Below are positions 20,446-46,948 of a DNA stretch of 60,412 nt, in pieces (the stretch's first letter is position 1; the number at the start of each line of letters is the position of its first letter). Under the pieces are notes generated by a model. It was not told the DNA's origin. It ran no database searches and saw nothing but the letters and a program-made list of their open reading frames with translations. The stretch is from Leptolyngbyaceae cyanobacterium (GTDB taxonomy: Bacteria; Cyanobacteriota; Cyanobacteriia; Phormidesmidales; Phormidesmidaceae), in contig CBDHHL010000022.1 in the NCBI GenBank assembly GCA_965263355.1, forward strand, positions 1 to 60,412, written 5' to 3'. The translations under genes were made by a program, and so were the position numbers.

Positions 20446-20495
20446 CAATCCAACTAAAGATTTGGAGGAGCTGGCTAACGTGCGATCGCAAGCAC

Positions 20496-22539: not shown

Positions 22540-22888
22540 CGCGAAAAATCTGATCGGGGTGTTGTGGATTGCGATCGCAACCACGAATTGTCCAAACGAC
22601 CTGCAACTATTTCAAACCGCACCAGTTGAAGCGGTCGAGCCCTCCGCAGCGCCGCCGTCCGGTCTGCAACCCTACGGTGTAGACGGTAAGCTGAGCGAGG
22701 CAGATATTAAAGCGTTGCTATATCTTCAGTTCCCTCAGTCCTATGATGCCATCTCGGATCGGTTTGGCTTCCCGGCCTATCGAGATAGCACGTCTGACTA
22801 TTATGGATTGCCCAATGGTCGATGGGTGGCAATTCAGTACTCAGGCAGAACGGCAACCGGCATTAAATTTAGTGATTCTGGAGATTAA
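22529..22888 (+). CDS. Small exported/membrane-anchored protein, cassette A gene 3
   Basis: Paralog of 44561-44908; the ATG homologous to the paralog start is out of frame here, so start is uncertain. Confidence 0.65.
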   Translation: MANDAKNLIGVLWIAIATTNCPNDLQLFQTAPVEAVEPSAAPPSGLQPYGVDGKLSEADIKALLYLQFPQSYDAISDRFGFPAYRDSTSDYYGLPNGRWVAIQYSGRTATGIKFSDSGD

Positions 22889-22902
22889 GACGGAGTACCC
22901 TA

Positions 22903-23394: not shown

Positions 23395-23732
23395 ACGGGT
23401 TGATGGGGTTACCGTCTTTAGACGGTTTACAGACTCTATTAAGGCGAATGGTGGTGATGGAGAGTGTTATAAGCAGGCGGTGGTTACGGAAACTGCTGAG
23501 TTATTGCACTGTCCGTCAGCTCTATCAAGAAACTGGGGCTAAGCGTTTTAAGCGTGACACGCTTCCCCACGAGGTTCAACAGGCCTATATGGCGAATGAA
23601 ACCTTTGCAGCTTATGAGCTAGAGCGAATGGAGGGAACTATTGGTGGAGAGTCTCAGGAAGAAGTAAATGAGCGGATTAATGCCGTGGTTAAGCAGGAGT
23701 CTAAGCAAACTAGAAGGCGACTTCCGTGGTAG
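23291..23732 (+). pseudogene. Frameshifted cassette A gene 5
   Basis: ORFs 23291-23542 and 23400-23732 join to match 45317-45763, with a ~4-nt loss near 23503. Confidence 0.8.
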
Positions 23733-27151: not shown

Positions 27152-27180
27152 AAAAAGCCCCCACCAGATCGGCAGGGGCT
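27152..27180 (-). terminator. Intrinsic terminator
   Basis: Minus strand AGCCCCTGCC-GATCT-GGTGGGGGCT-TTTT; conserved at 30086-30114. Confidence 0.75.
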
Positions 27181-27304
27181 CTAGAGTGTGTGTAGGGAAA
27201 GTCAGAAGAGAGAAGGGTGCCTCATGAAAGATAATGAAGCTTCACAGATGTACGGAGACGCACTCGGCACCCAAACTTGGTTAGCCTGAATACGCCCCGC
27301 TCTG

Positions 27305-27868
27305 TCAGCGGACGACGGACTTAGTACGAGCGTCTAACGCATCTAGGCGAGCTTCCTGGATGTTGTCGACTGCTTTAGTCCGGGCATCTAATGCGTCTAA
27401 ACGAGCAGCTTGAATATTCTCAACGGCCTTAGTTTGGTTGTTAAGGTGCTCAAGGCGTAGCTTATGAACGCTGTTCTTAGTGCGGGCGTCTAGGGCATCT
27501 AAACGAGTAGCCTGAATATCCTCAACGGCTTTGGTCTGGTTGTTGAGGTGCTCCAGACGTAGTTTGTGGACGGAGTTCTTAGTGCGAGCGTCTAAGGCTT
27601 CTAGACGAGCTTCTTGAATATTATCGACGGCCTTAGTGCGGGCATCTAGCGCTTCTAGGCGAGTGGCTTGGATATCTTCGATGGCCTTGGTCTGGTTATT
27701 GAGGTGCTCAAGGCGTAGTTTGTGGACGGAGTTCTTAGTGCGAGCGTCTAGTTCTTCGAGGCGAGTGGACTGGATGTTGAAGCTAGCGGGCTCAATGGCA
27801 GAGGCAACGGGTGCAATAGCGGCTGTCGCAACGAGAACGGTTAAAGCGGAAAGAAGTGTGCGTTTCAT
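27305..27868 (-). CDS. Secreted protein made of nine 16-21-aa repeats ending in TK
   Basis: Signal peptide MKRTLLSALTVLVATAAIAPVASA, then two unit types, IQ..RL(E/D)ALDARTK and NSVHKLRLEHLNNQTK; GGAG RBS. Confidence 0.88.
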   Translation of the reverse strand: MKRTLLSALTVLVATAAIAPVASAIEPASFNIQSTRLEELDARTKNSVHKLRLEHLNNQTKAIEDIQATRLEALDARTKAVDNIQEARLEALDARTKNSVHKLRLEHLNNQTKAVEDIQATRLDALDARTKNSVHKLRLEHLNNQTKAVENIQAARLDALDARTKAVDNIQEARLDALDARTKSVVR

Positions 27869-28072
27869 GGTTAAAGCTCCTTGTGAATTCGTGAAGTGTG
27901 TTTGTTTGCTTCATTGATTACAAGAATGCCGGGGGTAGCTGAACGCTATCTGACGGGTAACTGAAGGTTGCTTAAGGCGTTTCTGAGATTGGCTGAGGAA
28001 AGTTCGTGATACCCGTCACTGGGCAGTTGCTTGCGATGGTACGCTTGTATTGAAATCAGCGTTGCCCATCAA

Positions 28073-30085: not shown

Positions 30086-30938
30086 AAAAAGCCCCCACCC
30101 TATCGGCAGAGGCTTGGAGTGTGTGTTCGGAGAGTCTGAGAGGAAAAGGGTGCCCTGAAATAAGTAATGAAGCATTTCACAGATTACGGAGTCTGCACCG
30201 GGCACCCAAGCTTGGCTAACCTGAGTACCGCAACAGCTCAGCAATCTGTTAGCGGATGGACTTAGTACGAGCGTCTAGCGCTTCTAGGCGTGCTTCCTGG
30301 ATGTTATCGACTGCTTTAGTCCGGGCATCTAATGCGTCTAAACGAGCAGCTTGAATATTCTCAACGGCCTTAGTTTGGTTGTTAAGGTGCTCAAGGCGTA
30401 GCTTATGAACGCTGTTCTTAGTGCGGGCGTCTAGGGCATCTAAACGAGTAGCCTGAATATCCTCAACGGCTTTGGTCTGGTTGTTGAGGTGCTCCAGACG
30501 TAGTTTGTGAACGCTGTTCTTAGTGCGAGCGTCTAAGGCTTCTAGACGAGCTTCTTGAATATTATCGACGGCCTTAGTGCGGGCATCTAGCGCTTCTAGG
30601 CGAGTGGCTTGGATATCTTCGATGGCCTTGGTCTGGTTATTGAGGTGCTCAAGGCGTAGCTTATGGACGGAGTTCTTAGTGCGAGCGTCTAGTTCTTCGA
30701 GGCGAGTGGACTGGATGTTGAAGCTAGCGGGCTCAACGGCGGATGCAACGGGTGCGATCGCAGTGGAAGCAACGAGAACAGTTAAGGCGGAAAGAAGTGT
30801 GCGTTTCATGGTTAAAGCTCCTTGTGAATTCGTGAAGTGTGTTTACTTGCTTCATTGATTACAAGAATGCCGGGGGTAGCTGAACGCTATCTGACGGGTA
30901 ACTGAAGGTTGCTTAAGGGGTTTCTGAATTTAGCTGAG
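30086..30938 (-). repeat. ~850-bp direct repeat, copy 2
   Basis: Matches 27152-27997. Confidence 0.92.
30249..30809 (-). CDS. Secreted peptide-repeat protein, second copy
   Basis: Nearly identical to 27305-27868, with the same repeat order. Confidence 0.88.
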   Translation of the reverse strand: MKRTLLSALTVLVASTAIAPVASAVEPASFNIQSTRLEELDARTKNSVHKLRLEHLNNQTKAIEDIQATRLEALDARTKAVDNIQEARLEALDARTKNSVHKLRLEHLNNQTKAVEDIQATRLDALDARTKNSVHKLRLEHLNNQTKAVENIQAARLDALDARTKAVDNIQEARLEALDARTKSIR

Positions 30939-31148
30939 TAATATTGGTGATGGGGGTCACAGGGGTGGTTGTGGGTTGCGATCGCAATCCTGTGTGGGCT
31001 GTTGGATAGTTGCGTCGCGGTGCAGCGGGTCAGACTGAAAAGCCCTTCAGAGAATTAAGATGGCCAACCTTTTGGTAAAAAATCTAGATTTTCGGAAGAA
31101 AGGCAGCAAACCTTGTTGATATATAGATGATGTCTATCTCCGTTTCTG

Positions 31149-31526
31149 ATGTCCCAATCTGTTGGTCTCAGTGAACTCATAAGCCAGGTCAAGAAAGACT
31201 TATTGACCCCTGTATTAGATCGCAAGTCGGACCCCCCTGTGTTATTCGTCGAATCCGTTGAATTAGAGCTGCAAGTGACGGCCAGTCGAGATGGTAATGC
31301 AGGTGTGAAAATCGATGTCTTATCTGTAGGCGGCGTTGAGTTAGGGGGTGGCGGTGGTCAGGAGCGTAGCCATACGGTACGGGTGCAGCTATCACCCCTG
31401 TTTGATAAAGCTCAGATTATAGAGTGGTACAAAGATCTGTACGGCGACGAAGTATTACCTGCGGTGAAGCGTAGTATGGAATCTTTGCTCAAGGGCGATG
31501 ATAGCAATGTAGCCAATGACTTCTAA
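31149..31526 (+). CDS. Trypco2 (trypsin-co-occurring domain 2) protein
   Basis: VGLSELI.QV...L, FVESVELELQV......GVKI.V...GVELGG......HTVRVQLSP; first gene of the conflict operon. Confidence 0.8.
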   Translation: MSQSVGLSELISQVKKDLLTPVLDRKSDPPVLFVESVELELQVTASRDGNAGVKIDVLSVGGVELGGGGGQERSHTVRVQLSPLFDKAQIIEWYKDLYGDEVLPAVKRSMESLLKGDDSNVANDF

Positions 31527-33033
31527 TAGAATGCTGCTATTAGAGTGCGATCTTTCCGCCATTGATGCTCAACGATTTCGTATCATTACAACGGCTTCCC
31601 CGTCAGGAGATGGGCGAGCGGAATCGAGGCTACCCTTTTGGGATGGAGATATTGATCGGCGTACCACCATCATTAAGCTTTTAGAGGTCTCAGGGCAAAT
31701 TAAACCAGATGAGCATTTTCCAGACGATGCAGAACGTCGCTGGTTAGTGCAGCAGCAACTGTTAACAGCCGATGAGGCTAGCCTGACTCCAGATTATTTA
31801 GAGGTGATTGGTCAGGCGCTATATGCCTCATTATTTCCTGCGAACAGTGGGGTTCGTTCCACGTTTGCCTCTGCTCTGCGTATGGCGGAGCAATCGGGGG
31901 AGCTATTACACCTGCGTTTGAAGTATGGGAATGATGCCTCCAGTCGTTCTCGGTTGGCTGACTATCCATGGGAGCTATTGCACGATGGGGACCGGTTCTT
32001 GCTCCACCGTGATGTAGTGCTGTCGCGATATTTAGCCTATGAAGCACTGGCTCCGGCATTACCAGCGCAGCAGCAACTGAATGTTTTACTGCTGTCGTCG
32101 TCTGCAGCCGATGCCAGTCAACGATTAGCTCTATTACCGGATACTGAGCAGCAAGCTGTGCGCGAAGGCCTGGCAAAAGCTGTCGATGCGGGGCTGATTC
32201 AGTTGACTCAACTGAATCAGGTGACGCGTCAGGGGCTGGGTCGCTACAGTACGGACTGTGAGCCAGATGCGTTGCCCCAGGTGGTTCATTTTGATGGCCA
32301 TGGCTTCTATGGTAAACGCTGTAAAAATCCTGACTGTCAGCAAATTCATTCAGGTACTAAGGTGCAGCACTGTACCCGATGTCAGCAAGCGTTACCGGCC
32401 CCCGAAGGATTTGTTTTATTTGAGAAAGCGGGAGGAGGGGCCGATTATGTGAGTGCCCGTGAGTTTGCGTTATTACTGCCGAAGTCGGTGCTAGTTGTCG
32501 TCCTGAGTGCTTGCCGTTCCGGCATGTCAGTCGCTGGAGAATCGCTGTTTAATGGCACAGCACAGCAGCTAATCGATGCGCGTATCCCTGCAGTAGTGGC
32601 CATGCAATATTCAGTGCGTGTGGATGCGGCCAGCCAGTTTGCTGAGCAATTTTACCGGGTGCTAGGCAAGCAAGAACCTTTAATGGCGGCTCTCCAGGAA
32701 GGCCGTAAATGGATGCTTATGACCCAGGAAAATCAGTGGTATCGTCCGGTGTTGTATACCCGCTGGCAGGATAACCAAGGGGGGCAGCTTTTCCAGCCAG
32801 TTGGCGAAGCGGACAGGGTATCGGGGATGAGCCGTTTTAAGCGTTTAGAGTTAGGACGATGGCGTCAAAGCCTGGATGATTTAGAGCAAGACTATGAATC
32901 TGTCAGAATACAGCTAAGGAGTGAACAAGATGGGCCAACACGCAATAAATTAGATCGTCAGTTAGAGCAAATCGGGACGGAAATGGATCAGTGTGAGCAA
33001 AAGATTAATCGGCTAGAGCGGGGCGATGGATAA
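31516..33033 (+). CDS. CHAT (caspase-like) protease with Zn-ribbon insert and C-terminal EAD9-like domain
   Basis: LADYPWELL, VVHFDGHG (catalytic His), VVLSACRSG (catalytic Cys), IPAVVAMQYSV, WYRPVLY; CKNPDC...CTRC insert; helical C-terminus homologous to the N-terminus of the next protein. Confidence 0.9.
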   Translation: MTSNRMLLLECDLSAIDAQRFRIITTASPSGDGRAESRLPFWDGDIDRRTTIIKLLEVSGQIKPDEHFPDDAERRWLVQQQLLTADEASLTPDYLEVIGQALYASLFPANSGVRSTFASALRMAEQSGELLHLRLKYGNDASSRSRLADYPWELLHDGDRFLLHRDVVLSRYLAYEALAPALPAQQQLNVLLLSSSAADASQRLALLPDTEQQAVREGLAKAVDAGLIQLTQLNQVTRQGLGRYSTDCEPDALPQVVHFDGHGFYGKRCKNPDCQQIHSGTKVQHCTRCQQALPAPEGFVLFEKAGGGADYVSAREFALLLPKSVLVVVLSACRSGMSVAGESLFNGTAQQLIDARIPAVVAMQYSVRVDAASQFAEQFYRVLGKQEPLMAALQEGRKWMLMTQENQWYRPVLYTRWQDNQGGQLFQPVGEADRVSGMSRFKRLELGRWRQSLDDLEQDYESVRIQLRSEQDGPTRNKLDRQLEQIGTEMDQCEQKINRLERGDG

Positions 33034-34432
33034 CGATCTTGTATTGAAGTTGTTGAGAGAAAAGCTTGCAGATCTCGAAAAAGACTATGAAACTGTCCAG
33101 CAGCAGTGGCGCAATGAACAGGACGGTCCGGCTCGAAATAAGCAAGAACGCCAACTCGCAGTTATTGGCCAACAGATGGATGAGCAACAGCGCCAGATAC
33201 GCAGTCGTAAAAATGAATTAGAACTGTCAGCGGCAGTTGAATCCGTTCAGAGTTTAATTGACTTACTTAATAACCATGAAGATGATTTAAGAGTTGTATT
33301 CCAGGCATATCGACAGACTCGTAACCACTGGGGAGTTGCCATTCGAGATGATGTGACAACTGCTGAGGGGGCTGTGAAAGAGCTAGGTCGAATTCCGGCG
33401 AGGGGAAGTTATACGGCCCAAGATGAATTTGTTGCGCGCCTGATTCATGATGCCCAGATACCCGCTTTGGTGGAGGGCCTAAAAATATGGGGCGATCAAT
33501 ACCGCTCGGATGTGAACTGGTTAGAGTTGTATGGTCGGCTGGAAGTAGAAACTGAGCAGAGTCGGCAAGATATTCAGCCTGCGATTTTGATGAAAATTAC
33601 TCGTAGCGATGCAGCCTCAACCCAAGCTCAAGATGATCAGAATTATTATGAATTAACCGCCTGGTTAATCGAAGATATTGAGACCTATAAAACCCAGCAA
33701 ACGGGATACCATGCCTTGATATCAACGGGGTCACAAGAGTCAGAGCCCTGTAGGATAGAGGACTTACTGGCGAGAATCCCTCAGGTTCTAGTGCAGTTTA
33801 CAGAAGCGAGAAATGACCTGTGTGCCAATACGACTCATTATCCAGAGGTGCATGTATTTTTACCGCTGGATTTGATGCATTTAGATGTGGATCAGTGGTG
33901 TTTAGGAGCAATGCAACGTCGTGGTCGTGTAAGGTGTCTTGGTCATGATCATGTGGTGGTAGTCCGGTGTGGAGAGCGGTACGAGCGCAACTACACCCAG
34001 CGCCCTGCCTGGTTGAACTATTGGCAACGTCATCAGAGCTTACTGGATAGCGCTGCGGCTTCTGTGTTTACAACGGGTGATGATGCCGATCTAGATGAAT
34101 TGGTAGACATTCTATACGACGCAGAAGAGCCTGATAGTCTTACTGTAGGCTTACAGGTAACGCAAGTACCCAAAGAATTAATCAGTTTATGTGGCGAGTT
34201 ATTAGAGTCCGGGTTGCCGCTCATGGTGTGGCAACGTCAAGCGTTAGCTGGAACCCCACGTGGCCATGATTGGTCCGTAGCATTGCCGGAAGAAACCACA
34301 TTAAGGGCATTGCCCAATGCGGCTAAGCAAGAGCGTCGCAGTGCTAGACGGCATTCTCCAGAGTCACATTATGGTCATCATCTATCCCTTTTATGGGATG
34401 ATCCAAAGCTAATTCCGCCAAAGTCTGCCTAA
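33026..34432 (+). CDS. VMAP (vWA-MoxR-associated protein) with N-terminal EAD9-like domain and VMAP-C
   Basis: EVHVFLPLDLM..DVDQW, LG..H.VVVRC.ER, GLPLMVWQR, HLSLLWDDP; directly upstream of MoxR. Confidence 0.85.
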   Translation: MDNDLVLKLLREKLADLEKDYETVQQQWRNEQDGPARNKQERQLAVIGQQMDEQQRQIRSRKNELELSAAVESVQSLIDLLNNHEDDLRVVFQAYRQTRNHWGVAIRDDVTTAEGAVKELGRIPARGSYTAQDEFVARLIHDAQIPALVEGLKIWGDQYRSDVNWLELYGRLEVETEQSRQDIQPAILMKITRSDAASTQAQDDQNYYELTAWLIEDIETYKTQQTGYHALISTGSQESEPCRIEDLLARIPQVLVQFTEARNDLCANTTHYPEVHVFLPLDLMHLDVDQWCLGAMQRRGRVRCLGHDHVVVVRCGERYERNYTQRPAWLNYWQRHQSLLDSAAASVFTTGDDADLDELVDILYDAEEPDSLTVGLQVTQVPKELISLCGELLESGLPLMVWQRQALAGTPRGHDWSVALPEETTLRALPNAAKQERRSARRHSPESHYGHHLSLLWDDPKLIPPKSA

Positions 34433-34443
34433 ATTGAACAGTT

Positions 34444-35571
34444 ATGCCTAAGTCATCTAGTCAATCAACGTCAGATTGGAAAATATTTAAAGGGGATAGC
34501 CGTGCCCCCCACGGCGATATTGATCAGTTACCTGAAGCGCCCCCGTGGCGTCCCTTTGGTAAAGATGATAATCCGGGGGGGAGTCGTCGGAAGCGTCGGG
34601 GGCAAACTTTTCAGGCCCGTCCCGAAGAAATCGAGATGGTGAATGCGGCGCTGTACCTGCGGCGACCTTTGTTGATTACGGGTAAACCAGGGACGGGAAA
34701 ATCATCGTTGGCCTATGCTGTGGCCCATGAATTGGGCTTGGGTGAGGTGCTGTATTGGCCGATTACTACCCGTACTACATTGAAGGATGGCTTGTATAAT
34801 TACGACGCCATTGGCCGTTTACAAGAAGTTAAGCGATCTAAAGACGATCAAGACGATGACTATGTCGAAGATCCTCAAAAAATTGCAGACTATATTACGC
34901 TAGGCCCCTTAGGAACGGCTCTTTTACCCAATCAGCGACCGCGCATTTTGATCATTGATGAGATTGATAAAAGCGATATTGATCTCCCCAATGACCTATT
35001 GACTATTTTTGAGGAAGGTCGGTTTGAGATTCCAGAATTGGCGAGGCTAGAAAAGGATGACAGTGACGATCCCTCGTCAGTAACGGAGCCAATCTCTGTA
35101 CGGGTTCGGACCGCCTATGCGGATGACGAAGAGACCGTTACCTATGGTGACAAAAAGGTAACGGTAACGGGAGGTCGAATTACCTGTAAGGAATTCCCCC
35201 TGGTGATTCTAACGAGTAACGGTGAGCGGGATTTCCCACCTCCATTTTTACGCCGCTGTCTGCGTTTGAATATGCGAGATCCCAAACGAGAGGAATTAGA
35301 ACGCATTATTAAGGCTCATTTAAAGGATTGCGATTTGACTGAACAGGAGGTTGATGAGCTGATAACCTCCTTTATCAAACGGCGTGATACCGACAGGGAA
35401 CAGTTATCGACCGATCAGTTATTGAATGCCTTGTTCATGATTGTGCGGCAGCGTGGTCGTATGGGAGATAAGAAAGAGATATTGTTAGATCATCTTTTAG
35501 CCCCATTAGATAGGCCGTTAGAAGTCAAGGCTAAGGGGCGTACATCTGAGTCAAAGGGATCTGCTAAGTAA
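34444..35571 (+). CDS. moxR: MoxR-family AAA+ ATPase
   Basis: NAALYLRRPLLITGKPGTGKS (Walker A), ILIIDEIDKSDIDLPNDLL (Walker B), ILTSNGERDFPPPFLRRC. Confidence 0.95.
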   Translation: MPKSSSQSTSDWKIFKGDSRAPHGDIDQLPEAPPWRPFGKDDNPGGSRRKRRGQTFQARPEEIEMVNAALYLRRPLLITGKPGTGKSSLAYAVAHELGLGEVLYWPITTRTTLKDGLYNYDAIGRLQEVKRSKDDQDDDYVEDPQKIADYITLGPLGTALLPNQRPRILIIDEIDKSDIDLPNDLLTIFEEGRFEIPELARLEKDDSDDPSSVTEPISVRVRTAYADDEETVTYGDKKVTVTGGRITCKEFPLVILTSNGERDFPPPFLRRCLRLNMRDPKREELERIIKAHLKDCDLTEQEVDELITSFIKRRDTDREQLSTDQLLNALFMIVRQRGRMGDKKEILLDHLLAPLDRPLEVKAKGRTSESKGSAK

Positions 35572-35573
35572 AA

Positions 35574-38304
35574 ATGATCTCTCGTCTTTTAGAACAACTA
35601 CAAGCAGCTGGCTTATTACTGAGCGATCAGGAGATAGATGCGTTCAGTGAATCGCAGCCGCTTTTAGAAGACGAAGATATTGCGGATGCTCTTTGGTTAG
35701 CGCGTCAAATTGGTGGCAGCTATGAGCGGACGACCGCTGAGGAAAATAGGTCAGCTCAACCAGAGGACTCTAAGCCGATCAATCAAGGCGAGTTACCTGC
35801 ATCACCCCCCTTGCCGTCTCCTTCTGTGTCGGTGACAGTGCCTCAATCTAAGTCTAAGGCACCATCAGAGCCAGAAGAGGTCACTGAGGATGGACTGCCA
35901 GTGCAGGTACAGGCCGCTTCAGCATTGCCGGATGCACGGGGCATTAGCCGTGGTTTGCGGCCCCTCATGCGTAAATATCCATCCCGAACCCAATCGACTC
36001 TCGATGCTGTAGCTACGGTGAATCGAATTGCCGAACGTGATATTTGGCTCCCGATTCTGAAACCTTTGCCAGAGCGTTGGTTTGACTTAGAACTAGTGAT
36101 CGAGTCATCAAAGTTTAGTTTTATATGGCAAGAGACCCTCGCTGAGTTTCAGCATACGTTGGAATGTCAGGGGGCATTTCGTAATGTGCGGGCCTGGTCA
36201 ATTGAGGATGTGGATACGATGACGCCTAAATTGGTGTCCAAAAAGCAAGGGTCCAGTCAGACTCGCCCTAACCGTAGCCCCAAAGAACTGATAGATAGCT
36301 CAGGTCGGCGTTTGGTGCTGTTGGTGAGCGATTGTCGGTCTACCCTATGGCAACAGGGGGTGATCCATGATTGGCTAACTCTGTGGGGTCAGTATGGTCC
36401 CGCTGCAGTGGTTCAACTGCTACCAGAGCGTCTCTGGTCTCAGAGTGAGCTAGATGTGGGGCAAGGGATACAGGTGGGCGCTTTGGTGCCTGGTGTAGCC
36501 AATGAGAAACTTATCCATAAAGCCCAGGCAACCCGCAGCAAAATCGACCCTACCAATAGCCTAACGGTCCCTATAGTTACCTTGACGGCTACTGCCCTGA
36601 AGCAGTGGGCGCTTGTGGTGTCAGCAGCGGGTCGCCAGCGAACACCGGCCCGTTTGTTTGATATGAAGTGGGTTAAGAGTGCTGATCGAGACCGAACGCT
36701 GGACGTGATGCGGCCTGAGTCTGCTGACAGCCGGATTGAATTATTTGAAGCAACAGCGTCACCACTGGCACAGCAATTAGCCTTGCGGATGGCAGCGGTC
36801 CCTGTGGATATGTCGCTGGTCCAGATGATTCAGCAAGAAGTGCTTCCAGAGGTAAGCCCCGTTCATATTGCTGAAGTGTATGCCAGTGAGCTAATCCAGG
36901 AGGTGAATCCAGACCAGTCACCAAGCCGAGACGAGGTGCGCTATGAGTTTGCGCCAGATGTGCGTGAGCGGCTGAATCAACTCACTCCGATTGATGAGAC
37001 CCTACAAGTTTTTGAAGCGCTGTCTAAGCGCATTGCGCGCACATTAGGATTTGAGATTACTAGCTTTACAGCATTGTTATTACCAAAAAGTGATTGGAGT
37101 AAGGATGCTAAAGCCGCGATTCTACCCTTTGCCCAGGTGGCAACAGAGGTGTTGTATAACCTGGGAGGAGACTACGCTGAATTAGCGCGGCAAGTGGAGA
37201 TTGATGCCCAACGCCATGATGATTGGATTCAACCTATTGAACCCAATGACCAGGAGTCTGAGGATGAATTTGAAGGGCTGTTTCCTTCTTTGCAGGAGTT
37301 TGAGTTTATTGATGCTCGGTTTAATGATGAGATTTCTGATCGTATCTTCCCACCGGCTTTGCAATTTGAAGAATTTTTGATTCTGACGTTGGAGACTGGG
37401 GACGAAACCGATACACTCGCAGACTCCGAAGATTTAGAGTCTTTTGACGTAACGGTAGTCACCCTGACAGGCAGTGGCCAGCAGTGGCAGCGCCAGGAGC
37501 ACCAGCAGACAGCCTATCGCTATATTGAGCAGTTGCCCTCAGAGGTGCCCTTAGAGATGGTGGCAATTCCTAGTGGACGTTTTGTGATGGGCTCTCCAGA
37601 GGATGAACCGGAGCGTTATGAGGACGAATCGCCTCAACATGAGGTAACGGTGGAATCGTTCTTTATGGGACGTTACCCGGTGACCCAAGCGCAGTGGAAG
37701 GCGGTCGTTGCGCTACCCCAAGTAGAACGTAAGCTAGAGGCCGATCCGTCTGAATCCAAAGGAGATGATCGACCGGTGGAGCAAGTTTCCTGGCACGATT
37801 CGGTGGAGTTCTGTGCTCGATTGTCGGCTCATACGAGGCGTGAGTATCGCTTACCCAGCGAAGCCGAGTGGGAATATGCCTGTCGAGCAGGAACCACTAC
37901 ACCGTTTCACTTTGGGGACATGATCACTACGGTAGTGGCTAATTACGATGGTGATGAGACCTATGCAGATGGCCCTAGTGGTGAGCGCCGAGGTGAGACG
38001 ACTCCAGTGGGGTACTTTGGTATTGCCAATGGGTTTGGTCTGAGCGATATGCATGGCAATGTGTGGGAATGGTGTCAAGACCATTGGCATGACAATTATG
38101 ATGATGCGCCTACTGATGGAAGTGCTTGGGAAGATAGAGAAAATGAAGATGAGGAAGAAATTAACCGTGTAGTACGCGGGGGCTCCTGGTTCGACTTATC
38201 CGAGGTATTGCCGCTCCGCCGTCCGCAACGACGATCAACCCGACAACCGCAACTACGACTTCGGTTTTCGCGTAGTATGTTCCGCGCCCAGGATTCTCCA
38301 GTAG
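35574..38304 (+). CDS. vWA-like (SAV_2336-type) protein with C-terminal FGE-sulfatase/CLec domain; DGR target 1 (+1 frameshift in VR as assembled)
   Basis: [48 protein letters not shown] motifs [36 protein letters not shown]; corrected frame ends [13 protein letters not shown] at 38304. Confidence 0.9.
38176..38291 (+). repeat. DGR variable repeat VR1
   Basis: Identical to the TR except 10 substitutions at TR adenines plus AAT changed to TTAT (+1 nt) at 38196-38199. Confidence 0.95.
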
Positions 38305-38414
38305 CCCTTTTCTCTCTTTCTCTTCCCTCTTGCAGAATTCCTGCAGAACTCGAAATAACTCACCAAAAGCCAGCTTCTCCTTAACTGAATTTCTATCTGA
38401 ACTCCTGAGAACTC

Positions 38415-39249
38415 TTGACTCCCTTCCCTACTATGACTTTCTCCATCAAAGAACGCCGAGGCCAAAACCAGTATTACGACGAGGCCATCGCCGAAGGCGT
38501 ATGGCCTCTACGAATGATGGAGATACCGGCAGGTAGCTTTGTCATGGGCTCACCAAAGGAGGAGCTAGAGCGATTGGACAGTGAAGGCCCTCAGCACGAA
38601 GTGAGCCTTGGTCGTTTCTTTATGGCCAAGTACCCAGTCACTCAGGCCCAGTGGCGAGCGGTGGCGGCGATGGAGAAGGTGAATCAGAAGTTAAAGCCAG
38701 AGCCTTCTGACTTTAAAGGCGATCTAAACCCAGTGGAGAACGTCTCTTGGCATGATGCGGTGGAGTTCTGTGATCGCTTAACCCTCCATACCAATCGTCA
38801 ATACCGATTGCCTACAGAAGCCGAATGGGAATACGCCTGTCGAGCCGGTACAACCACCCCATTTCACTTTGGTGAAACCATTGACACTCAATTAGCCAAC
38901 TACCATGGCGACCGCACCTATGGCGAGGGCTCCAAAGGAGAATATCGGAAGAAAACGACTCCTGTGAATCAATTCAAGGGCGCAAATGCCTTTGGATTAG
39001 TGGATATGCACGGCAACGTGTGGGAATGGTGCCAGGACCATTGGCATGGCAATTATCAGGATGCACCCACTGATGGAAGCGCTTGGATAGAGGGTGGAAA
39101 TTCTGAGTATCGTGTAGTACGCGGGGGCTCCTGGGACACGATCCGAGGAATTGCCGCTCCGCCGTCCGCATCAACGATCTACCCCCGACTTCCGCAACAA
39201 CGTCAACGGTTTTCGCGTAGTATGTTCCGCGCCCAGGATTCTCCAATAG
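38415..39249 (+). CDS. Stand-alone FGE-sulfatase/CLec protein; DGR target 2 (frameshifted in VR as assembled)
   Basis: [48 protein letters not shown]; corrected frame ends [13 protein letters not shown] at 39249. Confidence 0.9.
39121..39236 (+). repeat. DGR variable repeat VR2
   Basis: About 9 substitutions at TR adenines; -1 nt at 39138 and +2 nt at 39182-39186. Confidence 0.95.
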
Positions 39250-39386
39250 CCCTTTTCTCTCTCTTTCCCTCTTGCCCTATGCAAAACAGAATTTAGAAAA
39301 CAGAAGTCAGGAGTCAGAAGAATATTCTGTAACTCGAAATAACTCACCAATAATTTTCTCAAAACATTCCTGAATCTTCTCTGCTG

Positions 39387-40475
39387 TTAACCGAATTCTC
39401 CACTCCTGACTTCTGACTCCTTTCTCATAAATGTATGCCGCTCAAATACCCGCTGTCTTAGCCGATAGGTATCGCCATGTTTCAGATGGGCTTCCCAGCT
39501 TTGCAAGCGCTGCACCAATGGCTCCAGCTCGATATCACCGGCAGCATACTGCCGCTGGAGTGCCTTGAGACGACGCCTGGCCCGACGCACATTATCATTA
39601 CGCACCCGAATCCGTTCTGGCAGAATGCGAAACCCAACGAAATTGGCCCCATAGCGGGTTTCAAATAACTGACTTTTAATCGGGTGCATCTTGAGCCGTA
39701 GGCTAGCCAGATACTCCTCCATGGCTAGCCGAGCGTCGGCCAGCTCCTGTCGATCATTTGAAAATGCCGCAAAGTCGTCTACATAACGCAGATACTGCTT
39801 GAGGTTGAGCTGACGCTTAACGAAGTGGTCAAAAGGGCTGAGGTATAGATTGGCAAAGAACTGACTGGTGAGGTTGCCAATGGGCAACCCTCGACGACGC
39901 AGTGCCGGTGTGAGCAGATCATCCCCCGGAAAGTATTCGATGACCGGCACCTGATCATTGCTGGCATCGATGATGGTGTCGATCAGCCAGAGGGTGGGTG
40001 GGCATTTAAGATGCTTTCTTAGCAAGACTTTGAGTATTTCATGATCGATGGATGGAAAGTATTTGGAAATGTCGCACTGTAAGCAATAGCGGTACTGTCG
40101 AGCCCAGTCAGTAAAGCGGTGCAGGGCTCGGTGGGTGCCATAACCCAGGCGATTGGCATAGGTATCGTGGATTAGGGTGCGGTCTAGCAGAGGCACGATC
40201 ACATTGCACAGGGCATGATGCACCACCCGGTCTCGATAAGGAGCCGCTGAAATCATGCGCGGTTTTGGATCCCGTATACGGAAGGTGCGATAGCCCCCCG
40301 GTTGATAGTTGAGGGTTTTTAGCTCAGTTTGAAGCTGTTGTAGCGATAGCTCCAGACGATGGTTAAAGTCCAGCACATTGGGCCGGAATCGCTTACCCTT
40401 TTTGGCCAGTCTAGAGGCCCGTAGCAGATTTTCAAAGGCGATCACCTGGGGCCACAGGTTCCCATGCCGTTTCAT
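39387..40475 (-). CDS. DGR reverse transcriptase
   Basis: [25 protein letters not shown]-type [22 protein letters not shown] catalytic motif, FVGFRI; 362 aa with no endonuclease or RNase H tail. Confidence 0.97.
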
Positions 40476-40858
40476 GGTCGAACCATGGGTGGCTTGGGCC
40501 TCGGACGTTCACCGTTTGATTGAGCTTGCTGCTGTTTGATCCAGCCGCCCAGGTCTGTGCCGATGGCATTGATGAGTTGACCGGCGTATTGATATCGCTG
40601 ATGGGAAATCAGGTCAAATTCCAGCAGTAATCGAGTTTGATAGCGAAGAACATCCAGTTTGCCATTGAGCTGCTGAAGCTGAGGCAGTTTCTGTTTTTGA
40701 TAGCGAACGACCACCAGGGTTTCCAGCAGCTCATAGAGTCCAGTGATAATGCGATCTCCCAGATGAAACCGATGTTCACGGGGCAATTTATTGATGATGG
40801 GCACGTACCACTTCACCAGGTCGTAGGTTTTTTGAATAATCGGTAGATCCGTTGACAT
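40472..40858 (-). CDS. avd: DGR accessory variability determinant Avd
   Basis: [12 protein letters not shown]......LPREHRF.LGDRI, LRY..RL, IG..LGGWIK; basic 128-aa helical protein whose stop overlaps the RT start (ATGA). Confidence 0.93.
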
Positions 40859-40979
40859 GAGATGTTTGCCCCTGATGCAGACGCCCTTCAGAATGCCCAG
40901 CGTTGATGTAGCGTTTTATCTCAAGGCCGTTAGGACCAGGACTGATCCGTCTATGCTGAGTAGTGGGGTAGGCCGCGAA

Positions 40980-41094
40980 GCGGGGGCTCCTGGAACAACA
41001 ATCCGAGGAATTGCCGCTCCGCCGTCCGCAACAACAATCAACCCGACAACCGCAACAACAACAACGGTTTTCGCGTAGTATGTTCCGCGCCCAG
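40980..41094 (+). ncRNA. DGR template repeat (TR)
   Basis: 115-nt intergenic copy of the VRs reading [37 protein letters not shown]; 12 AAY codons; diverged IMH*-like 3' end. Confidence 0.96.
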
Positions 41095-41251
41095 CACTCT
41101 TCTATTGCCGAAAGGCTGGCCAGAGTCGTTAGATGGGAATCTATCGAGCGTGCCCCAGGAGAGTCCAGAGCCTATTCCAGCGATGCTCCGGCATCCAAAA
41201 ATAAAACCGGGTCAGTTACTTTGGTAGGGAAACCGACGACTTAACTGACCC
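41095..41251 (+). ncRNA. Structured spacer downstream of the TR (part of the DGR RNA)
   Basis: Hairpins GCC-GAAA-GGC (~41107), GATGC-TCCG-GCATC (41182-41195) and 10-bp stem GGGTCAGTTA/TAACTGACCC (41209-41251). Confidence 0.65.
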
Positions 41252-41264
41252 ACCCCCCTAAGCT

Positions 41265-42088
41265 ATGTCACCCACCCTCCGCCGTACCCCCCGCACCGCT
41301 AAAGGCTATGTAGAGCCAGAGCTATCCCTGCCGTCTGAGGAATTGTCGCTTCATATGGTGCTGGTCCCTGGCGGCACCTTTACCATGGGTTCCCCAGAGG
41401 ATGAATCAGGCCATGAAGATAATGAAGGCCCTCAGCGGGAGGTGACCGTACCCTCGTTTTTTATGGGGCGTTATCCGGTGACCCAGGCCCAGTGGCGAGC
41501 GGTTGTGGCATTGCCCAAAGTAGAGAATGATCTAGAGGAAGACCCATCCAGCTTCAAAGGGGACAACCATCCTGTAGAGACCGTAAGCTGGTACGACGCA
41601 GTGGAGTTTTGCCAGCGCCTGGCGCAGCACACCCAACGCCCCTATCGGCTCCCCAGCGAAGCAGAGTGGGAATATGCCTGTCGAGCGGGCATCCAGACAC
41701 CGTTTTATTTTGGGGATACCATTTCTACCAATGTGGCTAATTATGATGGCAACTATACCTATGGAGAAGGCGAAAAAGGTGAATATCGAGAAACGACTAC
41801 TCCAGTGAATGAGTTTGGCATTGCCAATGGATTTGGACTGAGCGATATGCATGGCAATGTGTGGGAGTGGTGTCAGGATCATTGGCACGGAAATTATCAG
41901 GATGCACCTACCGATGGCAGTGCCTGGATAGAGGGAGGAGATTCTGATCTTCGTGTAGTACGCGGGGGCTCCTGGTTCAACAATCCGAGGTATTGCCGCT
42001 CCGCCGTCCGCTACATCAATCTCCCGACGACCGCAACAACAGCTACGGTTTTCGCGTAGTATGTTCCGCGCCCAGGATTCTCCCATAG
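41265..42088 (+). CDS. Stand-alone FGE-sulfatase/CLec protein; DGR target 3 (-1 frameshift in VR as assembled)
   Basis: [55 protein letters not shown]; corrected frame ends [13 protein letters not shown] at 42088. Confidence 0.9.
41962..42075 (+). repeat. DGR variable repeat VR3
   Basis: About 9 substitutions at TR adenines; 1-nt loss at the CAA codon (42021-42025). Confidence 0.95.
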
Positions 42089-42575
42089 CCCTTTTCTCTC
42101 TCTTGCTCTTTTGCTCTCTTCAAAGAAAAATCAGTAAAGCTTCTGAAGTCAAGCATTGGCCTAACCATGCTTCGGAGTAATGAGCCATAAAGTAAATATC
42201 GACTTCAAAACAGGTAGTGCTCAAAAATAATGACTACCGTTTGCCTGCGTCACTGCGCTGTAGACGCAGCTATTCTAACATGAGAGTTTGACTACAAGGA
42301 CCAGCGGGGGCATTTAAACCAAAACCTACGGTTTCGCCTGAAAAGCTATCAAATTAAAGGTTTCAATGGGTAGTGTTCTATTGACTATTTGCTTGGTAGC
42401 GCAGCGAGTCAAAGACTTCTAAGATTTGCGATCGCAACCACTCTCAACCCACCCAAAACCGCAGCCCGTGGAGTACCACCGGCTGCTACCTCGACATGGC
42501 TTAACCCCTCCCCAAAAAGATGTTGTTAGCTAAAGCTTTCAGCGATCATGTGTGGCCTGAACCATTTGCGCCAAG

Positions 42576-42863
42576 CTATAGATCATCGAATATCTCCTCT
42601 ATTGGTGTTAGCTTTGCGTCGAGAAGGTGGGCATAGATACTTGCATCATCGGCCACCTGTTTCATTCTTTGACTTGCAGGCGTGTCTTGATTAACTTTAT
42701 CCATATAATTTGGATTAGAGAGTAAGCCTTGTAGAGCCGCAGCAGCAAAGTATTCAAGCTTTGATAGACCAGGGTTTCTCTTACAATTGCCAGGACCATT
42801 ATGAGTTTCTTGTTCGAAGCCCGGAAAGGCATAATTGTTGGTTGTCGGTGCGTTTAGCTTCAT
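42576..42863 (-). CDS. Phage-like hypothetical protein
   Basis: AFP....GLSKLEYFAAAALQGLLSNP resembles the common phage G.T.RDYFAA.AMQG motif. Confidence 0.65.
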   Translation of the reverse strand: MKLNAPTTNNYAFPGFEQETHNGPGNCKRNPGLSKLEYFAAAALQGLLSNPNYMDKVNQDTPASQRMKQVADDASIYAHLLDAKLTPIEEIFDDL

Positions 42864-43164
42864 CGTCGATTTCTGTGACCCACATTCCGCCATTAAATTG
42901 GCACATCGGATAATTAATAACGAAGCCAATGGATCACAGCCTCTAAAGAAGCATGAATTCTCAATAAAACCTAACTATTGAGAATAATCTAGAAATAGTT
43001 CAAATGAATTATCTAGGTACTCAAAGTCTCTATGGAAAAGGCTTTCAGATTTAATATTTGATTGTGACAGTTGAGAGTGCGGAATGTCGGATCAAACCAC
43101 CTCACTCTGTAATCTAAGTTATAGGGGAATTGGAGTTAGCTAGGCGGATCACCTCACGATGTCA

Positions 43165-43722: not shown

Positions 43723-43979
43723 TGATACCAGGAATAGATCGATATCAACTTTAGTACGACTTTAGCTGAATGTACTGTCCCATCAAAGTCTTACGACTGT
43801 CCTATTCGTACCGTCCAGCCTTAAAAGCATTGAAATTAAAAAGCCTTGTTGACTTGTCCAATGTATTGTCCTATTGTGTTGTCCAGTGTACGGCAGTACA
43901 TCTGAACGCACATTCCACAGCACATCAGATGCACAGATGCCGTACATAGTAAAACCCTTGTACTAAAAGGATTCCATAT

Positions 43980-44564
43980 ATGAATAGCACACCGACGGAC
44001 GTATCACCACACGTTCTGACGGACATCGAGCCGCACACAGGCGGACATTACACCGCACACCAAATCGCTGAGACGCACAACGTTTCAGACTCGACCATCA
44101 GAAATCGGTGGTTTGAGTGGATTTGTAAAGCTGCCCCGGCTGAATTGCTTAAGGATAAGGAAGGCTTTACTGAGCTGGGCCGTACCCTATTTGCTGAGTT
44201 TGCTGAGGTGAAGACTTGCGATCGCGATACCTGGGTAACCGATGCTAAATCTCGCTATGCCCAAGAGTGGAGTAATGCCGGAGTCATTGAAGGCGAGCTG
44301 ATGCCTGATAGCGTCAGTAGTGCCCTGGCCCTACGCCAAACTCAGAACGGCATGATGCAGCAGTCTATTGCAGAGGAGCTGGCCGACCTGGAGAACTTTG
44401 TGGATCAGCTAGCGGTGACAGAGGCAGACTTTTCTGATGCAGAGCTGGCGTCATTTAAATCGGCAGGTCAACGTCGAGGCATGATGCGGTACAAGCTGGA
44501 ACTGCAGGCAGAGATGGACGCTTACGGTCAGTTGAAGCAGCGACGCATGGGGGGCAATCAATGA
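43980..44564 (+). CDS. HTH plus helical protein, cassette B gene 2
   Basis: Paralog of 21967-22539. Confidence 0.8.
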   Translation: MNSTPTDVSPHVLTDIEPHTGGHYTAHQIAETHNVSDSTIRNRWFEWICKAAPAELLKDKEGFTELGRTLFAEFAEVKTCDRDTWVTDAKSRYAQEWSNAGVIEGELMPDSVSSALALRQTQNGMMQQSIAEELADLENFVDQLAVTEADFSDAELASFKSAGQRRGMMRYKLELQAEMDAYGQLKQRRMGGNQ

Positions 44565-44908
44565 CGCGGAATCTGATCGGGGTGTTATGGATTGCTGTTG
44601 CCACTACCAACTGCCCAGACCTACAACTATTTCAAACCGCACCGGTTGAAGCCGTGGAACCTTCCGCCGCACCGCCACCCGGTCTGCAACCCTACGGTGT
44701 GGACGGTGAACTGAGCGAAGCGGATATTAAGGCGTTGCTATATCTGCAGTTCCCGCAGCAATACGAATCCATCACCGATAGGTTTGGCTTCCCCGCTTAC
44801 CGGGATAGCCTCAGCGACTATTACTCGCTGCCTAACGGTCGATGGGTCGCTGTTCAGTACTCAGGAAAGACCGCAACCGGCATTAAATTTAGCGATTCAG
44901 GCGACTGA
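44561..44908 (+). CDS. Small exported/membrane-anchored protein, cassette B gene 3
   Basis: ATGA overlap with gene 2; hydrophobic N-terminus with a Cys; paralog of 22529-22888. Confidence 0.78.
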   Translation: MTRNLIGVLWIAVATTNCPDLQLFQTAPVEAVEPSAAPPPGLQPYGVDGELSEADIKALLYLQFPQQYESITDRFGFPAYRDSLSDYYSLPNGRWVAVQYSGKTATGIKFSDSGD

Positions 44909-44922
44909 GAAGGAGTACCCTA

Positions 44923-45420
44923 GTGAGTAACACCACAGCATCGATCACGATGAAACTGCCAGAGCTAAAAAGAAAGGTTCGATATATCTGGGATTCTGTC
45001 AATGAATGGCATGGGGTTGTGCTGCAGCCCGAGAATTTCGATAAGGAAATGAAGACCTTTGGTGACCGCAGGTATAAGGCAACCTGGGTTAAAGCTCTGT
45101 GTAAGTTTGAAGCCATGCTTGCCATGGAGGGCTGTCTAGACTCTTGGGCGTTACTCACAATTACCTTTAACTTTCAGCCTGACGATTGGGACTACGAATA
45201 TCGTCATGGAATTTTTGATGAGTTCCTTAAGTATCCCGAGGCTATGGAGATTATAAAAACTGGCCTAGAGGATATATTTCACAAGGATTTTGACGTCCAA
45301 GAAAGAGAAAAGGCAGATGGGTTTTTTAGACTTCTGGAAGAACGAGAAGGAGCGGCTGGAACCCTCGGATTCTCAACTAGATTTGCTGGGCAATTCGCAG
45401 GAACTAGGACCGCAGCGTAA
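44923..45420 (+). CDS. Hypothetical protein, cassette B gene 4
   Basis: AAGGAG RBS; paralog of 22903-23394. Confidence 0.78.
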   Translation: MSNTTASITMKLPELKRKVRYIWDSVNEWHGVVLQPENFDKEMKTFGDRRYKATWVKALCKFEAMLAMEGCLDSWALLTITFNFQPDDWDYEYRHGIFDEFLKYPEAMEIIKTGLEDIFHKDFDVQEREKADGFFRLLEEREGAAGTLGFSTRFAGQFAGTRTAA

Positions 45421-45763
45421 ACGTTTTGATGGGGCTATGTCCTTCAGACGGTTTACTGACACGATTAAGGCTAACGGTGGTGATAAGAAGTGTTATTCCA
45501 ATGCTGTGGTTACCGAAACTCAAGAGCTGTTTGACTGTACCGTGCGTGAGCTTTATCAGGCCACTGGCGGCAAGATAAATCGGAGAGACACATTACCCCA
45601 TGAGGCTCAGCAAGCTTACATGGTTAATGAATCGCTTTCAGCCTATGAGCTTGAGCGCATGGAAGGCGCTATTGGCGGTGAAACCCAGGAGGAAGTAAAC
45701 GCCAAAATCAAAGCTGTTGTTAGGGAGCAGTCTAAGCAGACTCGCAAATGGTTACCCTGGTAA
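45317..45763 (+). CDS. Hypothetical protein, cassette B gene 5 (intact)
   Basis: MGFLDFWKNEKERLEPSDSQLDLLGNSQ; conserved with the split copy at 23291-23732. Confidence 0.78.
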   Translation: MGFLDFWKNEKERLEPSDSQLDLLGNSQELGPQRKRFDGAMSFRRFTDTIKANGGDKKCYSNAVVTETQELFDCTVRELYQATGGKINRRDTLPHEAQQAYMVNESLSAYELERMEGAIGGETQEEVNAKIKAVVREQSKQTRKWLPW

Positions 45764-45865: not shown

Positions 45866-46948
45866 ATGACACATCAACATCATGGTGCGGTTAAGTCTCA
45901 ACCGCACCCTAAATCCGTACGTCATTATAGACTTACCTGTGATGAATGGTTGCAGGCCTGCACAGAGCTGAAACCTGCTGAAATGAAGGTTTTGTACTAT
46001 CTCCGTACCTTAGACCCCTGGGGAGATAAGAACTTAGATATTAGTGTTACTGACATTGCTGATCGCCTCAAATGTAATAAAGGCACTGTCAGTCGAGCCC
46101 TTAAAGCGCTAGATACTAGCGGCTGGATTGAGCTGGAAATTAATAGTGCCACTGTCAAATTGCATACAAAAAATAGTACGAGTAACCAGGTGTTGTCTAC
46201 AGACAACGGGTTGTCTGAGAGCAACAGCGTTGTCTTAGGATCGCAAGTGTTGTCTACAGACAACGGGTTGTCTGAGAGCAACAGCGTTGTCTTAGGATCG
46301 CAAGTGTTGTCTACAGACAACCTGGATGATCGTCAGACAACACCGATGATCTCTAGACAACACTTGGCTTCTGAAACGGCCTCAGAGCATGACGTTCAGA
46401 TCCCTTTAAACTATTTAAAACTATCTACACCTACCAAACAGAGTGTGTGTGTCGGTGAAGGTGAAAAAATCACCATTAAAGATGCTGCACAATCCATAGA
46501 CACGTCACCATTTTTGTTAAAAGCAACGAAAAAATTTCAGATCAATCTGGCGGACCCCCATCTACGTCGAGCCATTGAGCGTTGGCCAGAGCGGGTGGAG
46601 GTTGCGATCGCATGCCTCCAAGAAAAAGAAGCCACCGTCAAACACCCCACCCGTTTTTTGCAAAAAGCCATCGAGGAACAGTGGCAGCCGGAGAACCTCG
46701 CCAAAGAAAAAGCCCCCGATGACTTCCAAGTCTGGTTTAAAGAAGCCCGTCAGCGGGGCCTTGTGGTCGGCTCCCAGCGCATCGATGGCAAACTGATGGT
46801 CTACACCGTCGATGAACGTTGCGTCCCCTTTACCCAGCTACGACAACAAAGTTGGGCAGCCCTAGAGGCGAAGCTGCAGGCGATGACAGAGGAGTTACCG
46901 CTGTTCGCACCGTCTCCCCCAGAACAAAAGCAGATACTCGTTGCCTAA
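45866..46948 (+). CDS. HTH replication-initiator-like protein with internal iterons
   Basis: LKPAEMKVLYYLRTLDPWG...SVTDIADRLKCNKGTVSRALKAL...GWI winged HTH; repeat linker; C-terminal VKHPTRFL.KAI.E.W. Confidence 0.75.
   Translation: MTHQHHGAVKSQPHPKSVRHYRLTCDEWLQACTELKPAEMKVLYYLRTLDPWGDKNLDISVTDIADRLKCNKGTVSRALKALDTSGWIELEINSATVKLHTKNSTSNQVLSTDNGLSESNSVVLGSQVLSTDNGLSESNSVVLGSQVLSTDNLDDRQTTPMISRQHLASETASEHDVQIPLNYLKLSTPTKQSVCVGEGEKITIKDAAQSIDTSPFLLKATKKFQINLADPHLRRAIERWPERVEVAIACLQEKEATVKHPTRFLQKAIEEQWQPENLAKEKAPDDFQVWFKEARQRGLVVGSQRIDGKLMVYTVDERCVPFTQLRQQSWAALEAKLQAMTEELPLFAPSPPEQKQILVA
46190..46362. repeat. Iteron array (~19-bp GTTGTCT..AGACAAC units; exact 57-bp tandem repeat)
   Basis: 57-bp unit starts at 46190 and 46247, partial at 46304; further GATGATC...AGACAACAC copies follow. 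Confidence 0.88.

Follow-up and report, generated by a model that had tools for sequence, protein, structure and literature searches.

Why should all three VRs of a cyanobacterial DGR be out of frame when the other genes of its island are open? This question is raised by a stretch of 60,412 nucleotides from a Leptolyngbyaceae cyanobacterium (contig CBDHHL010000022.1 of assembly GCA_965263355.1), which is referred to as a whole as the window. A first-pass annotation had placed four indels in these repeats, all of them at TR-adenine codons, and it had preferred a consensus artefact of an actively diversifying population over an RT that makes real indels. The positions proved exact in the assembled window, and the VR frameshifts are most likely an assembly artefact and not new biology. 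We assign a probability of roughly 60% to the reading that they are consensus errors, which arose from merging several in-frame VR alleles of a working DGR.

The element is an ordinary cyanobacterial DGR, consisting of an RT, Avd, a TR and three FGE/C-type-lectin targets, in a VMAP/MoxR conflict island. On the forward strand the island encodes the conflict-system adaptor Trypco2 (31149..31526; PF19631, E 9.5e-16), a CHAT (caspase-like) peptidase with EAD9 (31516..33033; PF12770, PF19962), a VMAP protein with EAD9, VMAP-M1 and VMAP-C (33026..34432; PF19962, PF19963, PF20028 with E 1e-31) and an AAA+ ATPase (34444..35571; PF07728 AAA_5, E 4.8e-10), which we call MoxR-like from its gene context. 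Target 1 (35574..38304, forward) is an FGS fusion that joins a SAV_2336-type N-terminal region (NF041121, E 3.4e-121; SAV_2336_NTERM matched above cut-off at the N-terminus) to an FGE/C-type-lectin domain. A Pfam profile search returned no match of the vWA model on this protein; SAV_2336-N is a region that we take to be vWA. Targets 2 (38415..39249, with a start at 38415 or 38433) and 3 (41265..42088) are stand-alone FGE/C-type-lectin proteins on the same strand. PF03781 is present in all three targets, and each VR spans the last codons of its gene. The RT (39387..40475; 362 aa, PF00078, YVDD active-site motif) and Avd (40472..40858; PF22296, NF033474 with 135.7 bits against a cut-off of 80) lie on the reverse strand, opposite to the 115-nt template repeat (TR) core (40980..41094, forward), which contains 28 mutable adenines and no indel. 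The genes at 31149-35571, RT and Avd are all open, as had been stated at first pass. The RT shares 88% identity with an RT of Leptolyngbya sp. PCC 7375. Across five relatives, of which two come from loci with TR/VR, identity is 81-92% and the core motifs are unchanged; the nearest RTs are cyanobacterial as judged by record title. In a cluster look-up the three target proteins were singletons from this contig only, with no other allele there, and the best match to target 3 was 85% identical. TR and VR sequences part ways after 41094, which would fit an IMH*/IMH arrangement, and the sequence 3' of the VRs did not fold into a hairpin beyond shuffled controls (z 0.43, -0.45 and -0.30).

VR1 (38176..38291, 116 nt) carries +1 at an AAT codon (38196-38199), VR2 (39121..39236, 116 nt) -1 at about 39138 and +2 at 39179-39186, and VR3 (41962..42075, 114 nt) -1 at 42021-42025, all on the forward strand. 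Every shift throws the conserved GFRVV end, presumably a strand of the lectin fold core, out of the reading frame. The conserved stops are at 38302-38304, 39247-39249 and 42086-42088; as assembled, the ORFs of targets 1 and 2 extend to 38384 and 39296, and that of target 3 ends early at 42059, where its seven closest homologues (273-276 aa) are in frame. Ungapped substitutions relative to TR (11, 9 and 9 for VR1, VR2 and VR3) fall without exception on TR adenines, and the TR codons hit by the four indels each contain two adenines (AAT, AAC and CAA twice). AA occurs in 13 of the 37 TR codons, which for four of four gives p of about 0.015 given an indel within the repeat, while the confinement of all four to 345 of 12,001 nt has p of about 7e-7.

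The independent evidence consists of contigs only, and the two public runs X1 and X2 come from one sample. Both VR2 indels are absent from an X1 contig (38814-39215; depth 12.7 of 12.7) and from an X2 contig (38874-39215; depth 2.4 of 2.4), which differ from the window by a G behind 39138, two letters fewer at 39182 and one other letter. The resulting allele is in frame and, at 115 nt, as long as TR, from which it differs at 10 positions, all of them adenines; it gives a target 2 of 271 aa counted from 38433. In 40,000 simulations of independent alleles, none matched it to within one difference, so it represents the same allele as the window's, and since it is in frame, RT slippage cannot explain the VR2 indels. 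The suggestion that they are true sequence, and with it that of real indels made by the RT, is thereby refuted for VR2. Outside the VRs, 10,412 nt of the window, TR among them, are covered without gap by the listed main-strain pieces, and an X2 contig (39460-41094, again including TR) shows neither a difference nor a gap; that both indel events should fall by chance within the 95 nt covered of VR2 has p of about 8e-5. Outside the island other genes of the contig are broken, with breaks at about 23500 and in a garbled, repeat-rich HEAT gene (50639-53028). None of the listed contigs spans VR1 or VR3, and neither is among the 12 listed of 37 indel rows, which fits the lack of a spanning contig or agreement with the window. 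One X2 contig ends at 41975, the last invariant base before the first variable site of VR3, which weakly hints at an allele mixture. No second allele was seen for any VR in the contigs, which drop rare variants and show VR2 as one allele. The window differs at 35067 from all three runs X1-X3, so these runs may not be its source sample; methylation-related read errors as the origin of the substitutions at 34003 and 35067 were unsupported. A T behind 39137 in X3 (24 of 29.5 depth, two contigs) was considered and rejected as a second VR2 allele, because all contigs of X3 in this neighborhood are divergent and add up to a similar depth (24.6 at 38905-38934); it probably derives from paralogues or another strain. 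Run X4 (share 0.10) contained relatives only.

A toy consensus simulation with 40 runs per setting links such errors to allele mixtures. A single allele gave frameshifting indels in 0/40 runs, five alleles gave adenine-site frameshifts in 16/40 and 24/40, and 20 alleles in 19/40 and 32/40, with -1 as the commonest size followed by +1 and +/-2. As judged from general DGR biology, RT-Avd would copy TR RNA, misincorporating bases at adenines, and the VRs would be replaced by the cDNA, so that cells come to differ at AAC, AAT and CAA codons. Within-sample VR variation is common, with SNVs at 70.1% of VR loci in the available part of one survey (PMC8144416). As the simulation suggests, alleles differing at two adjacent bases may align as an insertion plus a deletion, of which a heaviest-path consensus would keep one and drop the other, leaving indels of 1-2 nt only at adenine codons; the contig would then have been built or polished by such a method. 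The in-frame VR2 of X1 and X2, the gap-free flanks and the mixed-allele simulation together support the consensus artefact that the first-pass annotation had favored. Consensus error is likely for all three repeats, by direct absence of the indels from independent contigs for VR2 and by extension for VR1 and VR3, and the source population was probably mixed and diversifying at the VR sites. The toy model fits one detail poorly: VR2 combines two indels with at most one substitution, and a main allele at 30-50% mixed with independent new alleles gave a frameshift with no more than one substitution in only 1/40 runs at each of three frequencies.

A mixture could also have arisen without allelic diversity, if reads from TR, the sister VRs or homologous DGRs of related strains of the same metagenome were cross-mapped and conflicted at TR-adenine codons during polishing, each VR being one in-frame allele. 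We regard this as unlikely, although X1 contains another DGR, 12-14% divergent (records 3, 6 and 7; depth 7-8), together with many FGE paralogues, and the garbled HEAT gene would fit too. Mixing the own allele with TR and two paralogues produced non-triplet indels in 5/40 (50% own) and 10/40 runs (40% own), but in 0/120 runs was a frameshift combined with at most one substitution. Moreover, next to the -1 site of VR2 the window retains VR2's own codon where TR and VR3 read AAT, TR is equally exposed yet clean, and long reads would hardly cross-map over 115-nt repeats.

Real frameshifts, in which the RT slips at AAC/CAA codons and some targets (VR1, VR3) are switched off or re-tailed, are improbable. 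Such events beside AAC are already published: the accessible text of one study lists frameshifting TR/VR indels in 11 of 372 DGRs, 74% of the indels adjoining AAC (PMC5758913), and slippage is discussed for bRT in the accessible part of another (PMC12875486). The contig evidence against the indels is, furthermore, limited to VR2. Among relatives, 2 of 100 VR-TR pairs are frameshifted (0/25 in loci L001-L014, which have the closest RTs), and 380 pattern matches included three frameshifted FGE ends. Seven gapped pairs were left out of the former count, namely those with triplet indels (L031, L058, L065), a compensated +2/-2 (L010) or a 22-nt insert in TR with VRs in frame (L008, L167, L168), and four off-frame matches of the pattern (L206, L207, L210, L211) were set aside as chance occurrences outside FGE. 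Real VR frameshifts do exist, also in fragmented assemblies of short-read type (three cases: L055, judged by its contig name, and G070 and G299, judged by contig number); with two further cases from megabase-scale or complete MAG assemblies (G001, G003), the numbers are too small to call a link with long-read assembly. Against this background of 1-3%, three of three shifted VRs are very unlikely (Fisher p 5.7e-5, the three VRs not being independent). The same VR2 allele exists in frame, so that a slippage product would need two reversions, the RT resembles its relatives as given above, and the shifts forfeit the GFRVV strand. Shifted C-terminal tails were found in none of 119 homologous proteins, and a programmed new C-terminus was rejected on this ground.

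Plain sequencing error of homopolymer type, which a low-depth assembly would have failed to correct in repeats, is very doubtful. For three of the four indels, which touch runs of T or C, a homopolymer-length error is a possible reading, the window departs from all runs at 35067, and a single allele at about 8% error and depth 6 was frameshifted in 10/40 runs. The same simulation, however, yielded 25 indels over about 130 nt of flank and 11 over 75 nt of VR; at that rate dozens would be expected in the 10.4 kb flank, where none was seen. TR is clean, although it shares the C run and has even more AAC repeats. Least credible is a scenario in which VR1 and VR3 are truly out of frame by frequent AAC/CAA slippage of this RT lineage and retrohoming acts as a reversible on/off switch for VMAP lectin sensors, VR2 alone being misassembled.

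In method the case is a caution: VR frameshifts known from a single assembly should be compared with reads before they are called pseudogenes or products of RT slippage, and some published cases may call for such a comparison too. Should mixed alleles be confirmed, a clean contig whose indels are all at TR-adenine codons would be an inexpensive marker of currently active DGRs; were VR1 and VR3 truly shifted, a DGR would serve in addition as an on/off switch for conflict sensors.

As biology the element adds little to the cyanobacterial DGR/VMAP type to which it belongs, and which is already well described. By sequence, its candidate kin are the cyanobacterial CLec/FGE DGRs (Vallota-Eastman et al., 2020, PMC7517822; subclade 5E, Dore et al., bioRxiv 10.1101/2023.09.22.558884), with which it has in common RT, Avd, an AAC-rich TR, adenine-only substitutions and several targets with a 3' VR in the FGE/C-type-lectin domain; unlike them, its three VRs are all out of frame as assembled. 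The orientation of avd-RT opposite to TR and targets recurs in 7 of 58 related loci with TR. The island resembles the cyanobacterial FGS subtype of the VMAP ternary conflict systems (Kaur et al., 2020, PMC7159879, as far as its text was available), which shares Trypco2, the EAD9 peptidase, VMAP, the AAA ATPase and a large protein with a C-terminal FGS domain that carries a VR; as in VMAP ternary systems, the AAA+ ATPase, of the MoxR subfamily by context, sits between VMAP and the FGS-bearing gene. In the same portion of that study about 80% of the VMAP systems of cyanobacteria and gammaproteobacteria have a linked DGR, and Trypco is paired with trypsin and caspase with an alpha/beta hydrolase, whereas here Trypco2 stands beside the CHAT/caspase-like peptidase, and target 1 has SAV_2336_NTERM instead of a vWA Pfam match. 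The frameshifting indels of 1-2 nt opposite AAC-type codons are like those that Wu et al. (2018, PMC5758913), in the accessible text, interpreted as RT slippage, for which the indel is present in the DNA itself; in the X1 and X2 contigs those of VR2 are not. With all three targets hit and VR2 contradicted by the contigs, assembly and not slippage is to be suspected here.

The frameshifts reported in the three variable repeats (VR1–VR3) of this DGR are most likely not biological. With repeat limits set by anchoring on the ends common to the template repeat (TR; 40980–41094, 115 nt) and the VRs, alignment to the TR recovers all four indels that the first-pass annotation had placed there, namely +1 at 38196–38199 in VR1 (38176–38291, 116 nt), −1 at about 39138 and +2 at 39179–39186 in VR2 (39121–39236, 116 nt), and −1 at 42021–42025 in VR3 (41962–42075, 114 nt). 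Every substitution relative to the TR (11 in VR1, 9 in VR2, 9 in VR3) is at a TR adenine, and the claimed restriction of the indels to TR-adenine codons was likewise borne out, all four falling at codons with two TR adenines. AA-containing codons account for 13 of the 37 in the TR (p about 0.015); for all four indels to lie by chance within 345 of the 12,001 nt has a probability of about 7e-7. After the shift, the conserved GFRVV end is no longer read in frame in any of the three VRs.

Eleven public sequencing runs matched, three of them containing 72–85% of the sampled words, and four (X1–X4) were compared with window 31000–43000 as contigs rather than raw reads; this comparison covers the longest pieces only, with 12 indels (25 more exist) and 40 substitutions (816 more). 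In X1 and X2, two independent runs of the same sample, the VR2 frameshifts are absent: the X1 contig (38814–39215, depth 12.7 of 12.7) and the X2 contig (38874–39215, depth 2.4 of 2.4) both show an extra G after 39138 and are two letters shorter at 39182, each with one further letter, of unlisted position, differing from the window. Corrected accordingly, VR2 is 115 nt long and differs from the TR at 10 positions, all of them TR adenines, and target 2 becomes a 271-aa protein that ends normally. Even the closest of 40,000 simulated products of independent retrohoming was 5 differences away from this X1 allele, with none at one or fewer, and VR2 in X1 and X2 is therefore the window's own allele minus the indels. 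Outside the VRs no gap was found in the 10,412 nt, TR included, covered by the listed main-strain pieces, so that the error is not region-wide; the similar indel density across the contig that the first-pass annotation had named as counting against its reading is absent from this covered sequence. VR1 and VR3 are spanned by none of the longest pieces listed, and their frameshifts would by extension be artefacts too. One X2 piece ends at 41975, the final invariant base ahead of the first variable site of VR3, and the next resumes at 42075, at a depth under 3 a weak hint of mixed alleles. Runs X1–X3 are possibly not the window's source, because the window has C at 35067 and 34003 where T is found in X1, X2 and X3 and in X2 and X3, respectively, differences that are either strain variation or consensus errors. 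A second DGR, 12–14% divergent, is present in X1 (depth 7–8) and X3 over window 39432–41483.

An artefact of some kind is thus very probable, and we favour, at roughly 0.6, that a consensus drawn over mixed VR alleles introduced the frameshifting indels into the assembly. This was also the preferred reading of the first-pass annotation, which had proposed an actively diversifying DGR; for VR2 its artefact part stands on two in-frame runs and gap-free flanks, and for VR1 and VR3 it is carried over from there. We wrote a small partial-order consensus with scores of 3, −5 and −4, presumably the defaults of a common polisher, and ran it at depth 20, 40 times per condition. A single allele gave no frameshifting VR indels at 0.2% or 3% error (0/40 each), while mixtures of 2, 3, 5 and 20 alleles gave frameshifts in 5, 8, 16 and 19 of 40 runs at low error and in 4, 12, 24 and 32 at 3%. 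The indels were most commonly −1, then +1 and ±2, with 0–1 in the flanks per condition; a tally by distance to the nearest TR adenine (2 nt or less) is weak, as this zone takes in much of the VR. When the X1 allele made up 50, 40 and 30% of a mixture with new alleles, 1, 3 and 13 of 40 runs yielded non-triplet indels, 4–10 indels fell outside the VR, and an indel with at most one substitution relative to the X1 allele was seen in only 1/40 at each frequency. The window's VR2 differs from that allele by two indels with no more than one substitution, a poor fit, and the real mixture or polisher therefore differs from the model; real alleles could, for example, differ at only a few codons. PMC8144416 describes local aligners as mishandling VRs with many variants, and our literature search of listings and abstract openings, with most subscription papers outside its scope, found no description of consensus-made VR indels.

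Corruption of the consensus by cross-mapped TR or paralogue reads is an unlikely alternative source: it frameshifted 1, 5 and 10 of 40 simulated runs at 70, 50 and 40%, but none of the products came within one substitution. Rather less likely still, the VR frameshifts may be real. Slippage at VR2 would need two reversions to yield the in-frame X1 allele, and, retrohoming being a 3'-anchored mechanism, a new event extending as far as 39138 should re-randomise the codons that lie downstream. In relatives (three sets, of 80 loci, 30 loci and 95 stretches) 100 distinct VR-TR pairs were alignable in 62 loci; nine were gapped and two truly frameshifted (L025, L055), the other seven being dropped from the count (three with triplet indels, L031, L058 and L065; three gapped through a 22-nt TR insert, L008, L167 and L168; and one compensated by +2/−2, L010), and none of 25 pairs was frameshifted in L001–L014, whose RTs are 67–88% identical. 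By a frame test 3/139 FGE ends are out of frame (L025, L055, L091), and the pattern RGGSW...GFR gave 380 matches in 122 of 401 genomes sampled from the phylum, a denominator in which TRs and paralogues that are not targets are counted too and compensated indels go unseen; seven matches were out of frame, three of them genuine FGE ends. Among 119 homologues of target 3, 112 have an RGGSW-type motif, GFR is in frame in 110 with in-frame variants in 2, and none has a shifted tail like the window's. The background VR frameshift rate is thus about 1–2%, close to the 11/372 DGRs with frameshifting indels given in PMC5758913, where 74% of indels adjoin AAC. The window's 3/3 compared with 2/100 in relatives gives p 5.7e-5, although the VRs of one assembly are not independent. 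Plain sequencing error is very improbable: at a high rate and depth 6 it did frameshift 10/40 runs, but it strewed 25 indels through the flanks, a scatter that the real data lack.

Frameshifted FGE variable ends were also seen at L025:8411 (G001), L091 (G003), L055:6886, L208 (G299) and L209 (G070), and L091 matches an in-frame copy of the same genome (L104) over the compared stretch apart from the frameshift. Two separate TRs, in L008 (− strand, about 2641) and L168 (+ strand, about 1450; also L167), share at one position a 22-nt insert forming a small hairpin, and the corresponding VRs are in frame without it; the insert is possibly a mobile repeat of small size that froze the element, or else a loop skipped by the RT.

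On the same contig, a HEAT-repeat/NTPase-like gene (50639–53028) is spread over frames; its 102-nt repeats are scrambled and 31 nt are tandemly duplicated at 51553–51614, and its homologue on Calothrix plasmid AP025021 is a single 1,065-aa ORF. The scrambling suggests a consensus method that has difficulty where reads disagree. Further breaks lie near 3780, 12870–13331, 23500 and 28375; these and the HEAT-repeat gene, all outside the compared 31000–43000, may be pseudogenes or errors. A four-gene module occurs twice (21939–23711 and 43952–45742, 78% identity), the first copy frameshifted near 23500 relative to the second, and a gene for a small signal-peptide-like protein of internal repeats (e.g., RLEALDARTK) is duplicated at 27152–28023 and 30086–30964 (91%). 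There are also a 294-nt tandem duplication (87%) at 20094–20693, a 57-nt repeat within a putative replication gene (46187–46321) and short inverted heptamer-like repeats flanking the RT 3' end (39300–39420). The 60,412-nt contig encodes ParB, ParA and a tyrosine recombinase and is probably a plasmid.

Annotated by Pfam and NCBIfam, the island encodes Trypco2, CHAT-EAD9, EAD9-VMAP-M1-VMAP-C, an AAA ATPase, SAV_2336-N with FGE (VR1), FGE (VR2), RT/Avd on the − strand, the TR and FGE (VR3), and the locus is thus a DGR joined to a VMAP ternary conflict system. Within 39387–41094, avd-RT is opposite in strand to the TR and targets, an inversion shared by 7 of 58 related TR-bearing loci (L001–L003, L008, L010, L013, L014), all among the closest RT relatives; this architecture marks one lineage. 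According to Kaur et al. (PMC7159879), a DGR accompanies about 80% of the VMAP systems of cyanobacteria and gammaproteobacteria and Trypco is paired with trypsin, whereas the partner of Trypco2 here (31149–33033) is a CHAT/caspase-like peptidase. Cyanobacterial DGRs with several targets are known from PMC7517822 and bioRxiv 10.1101/2023.09.22.558884, and PMC12875486 discusses slippage for bRT. The nearest named RT is that of Leptolyngbya sp. PCC 7375 (88% identity), the core residues of the window's RT show nothing unusual in comparison with five relatives, and the element is an ordinary further example of a known DGR type.
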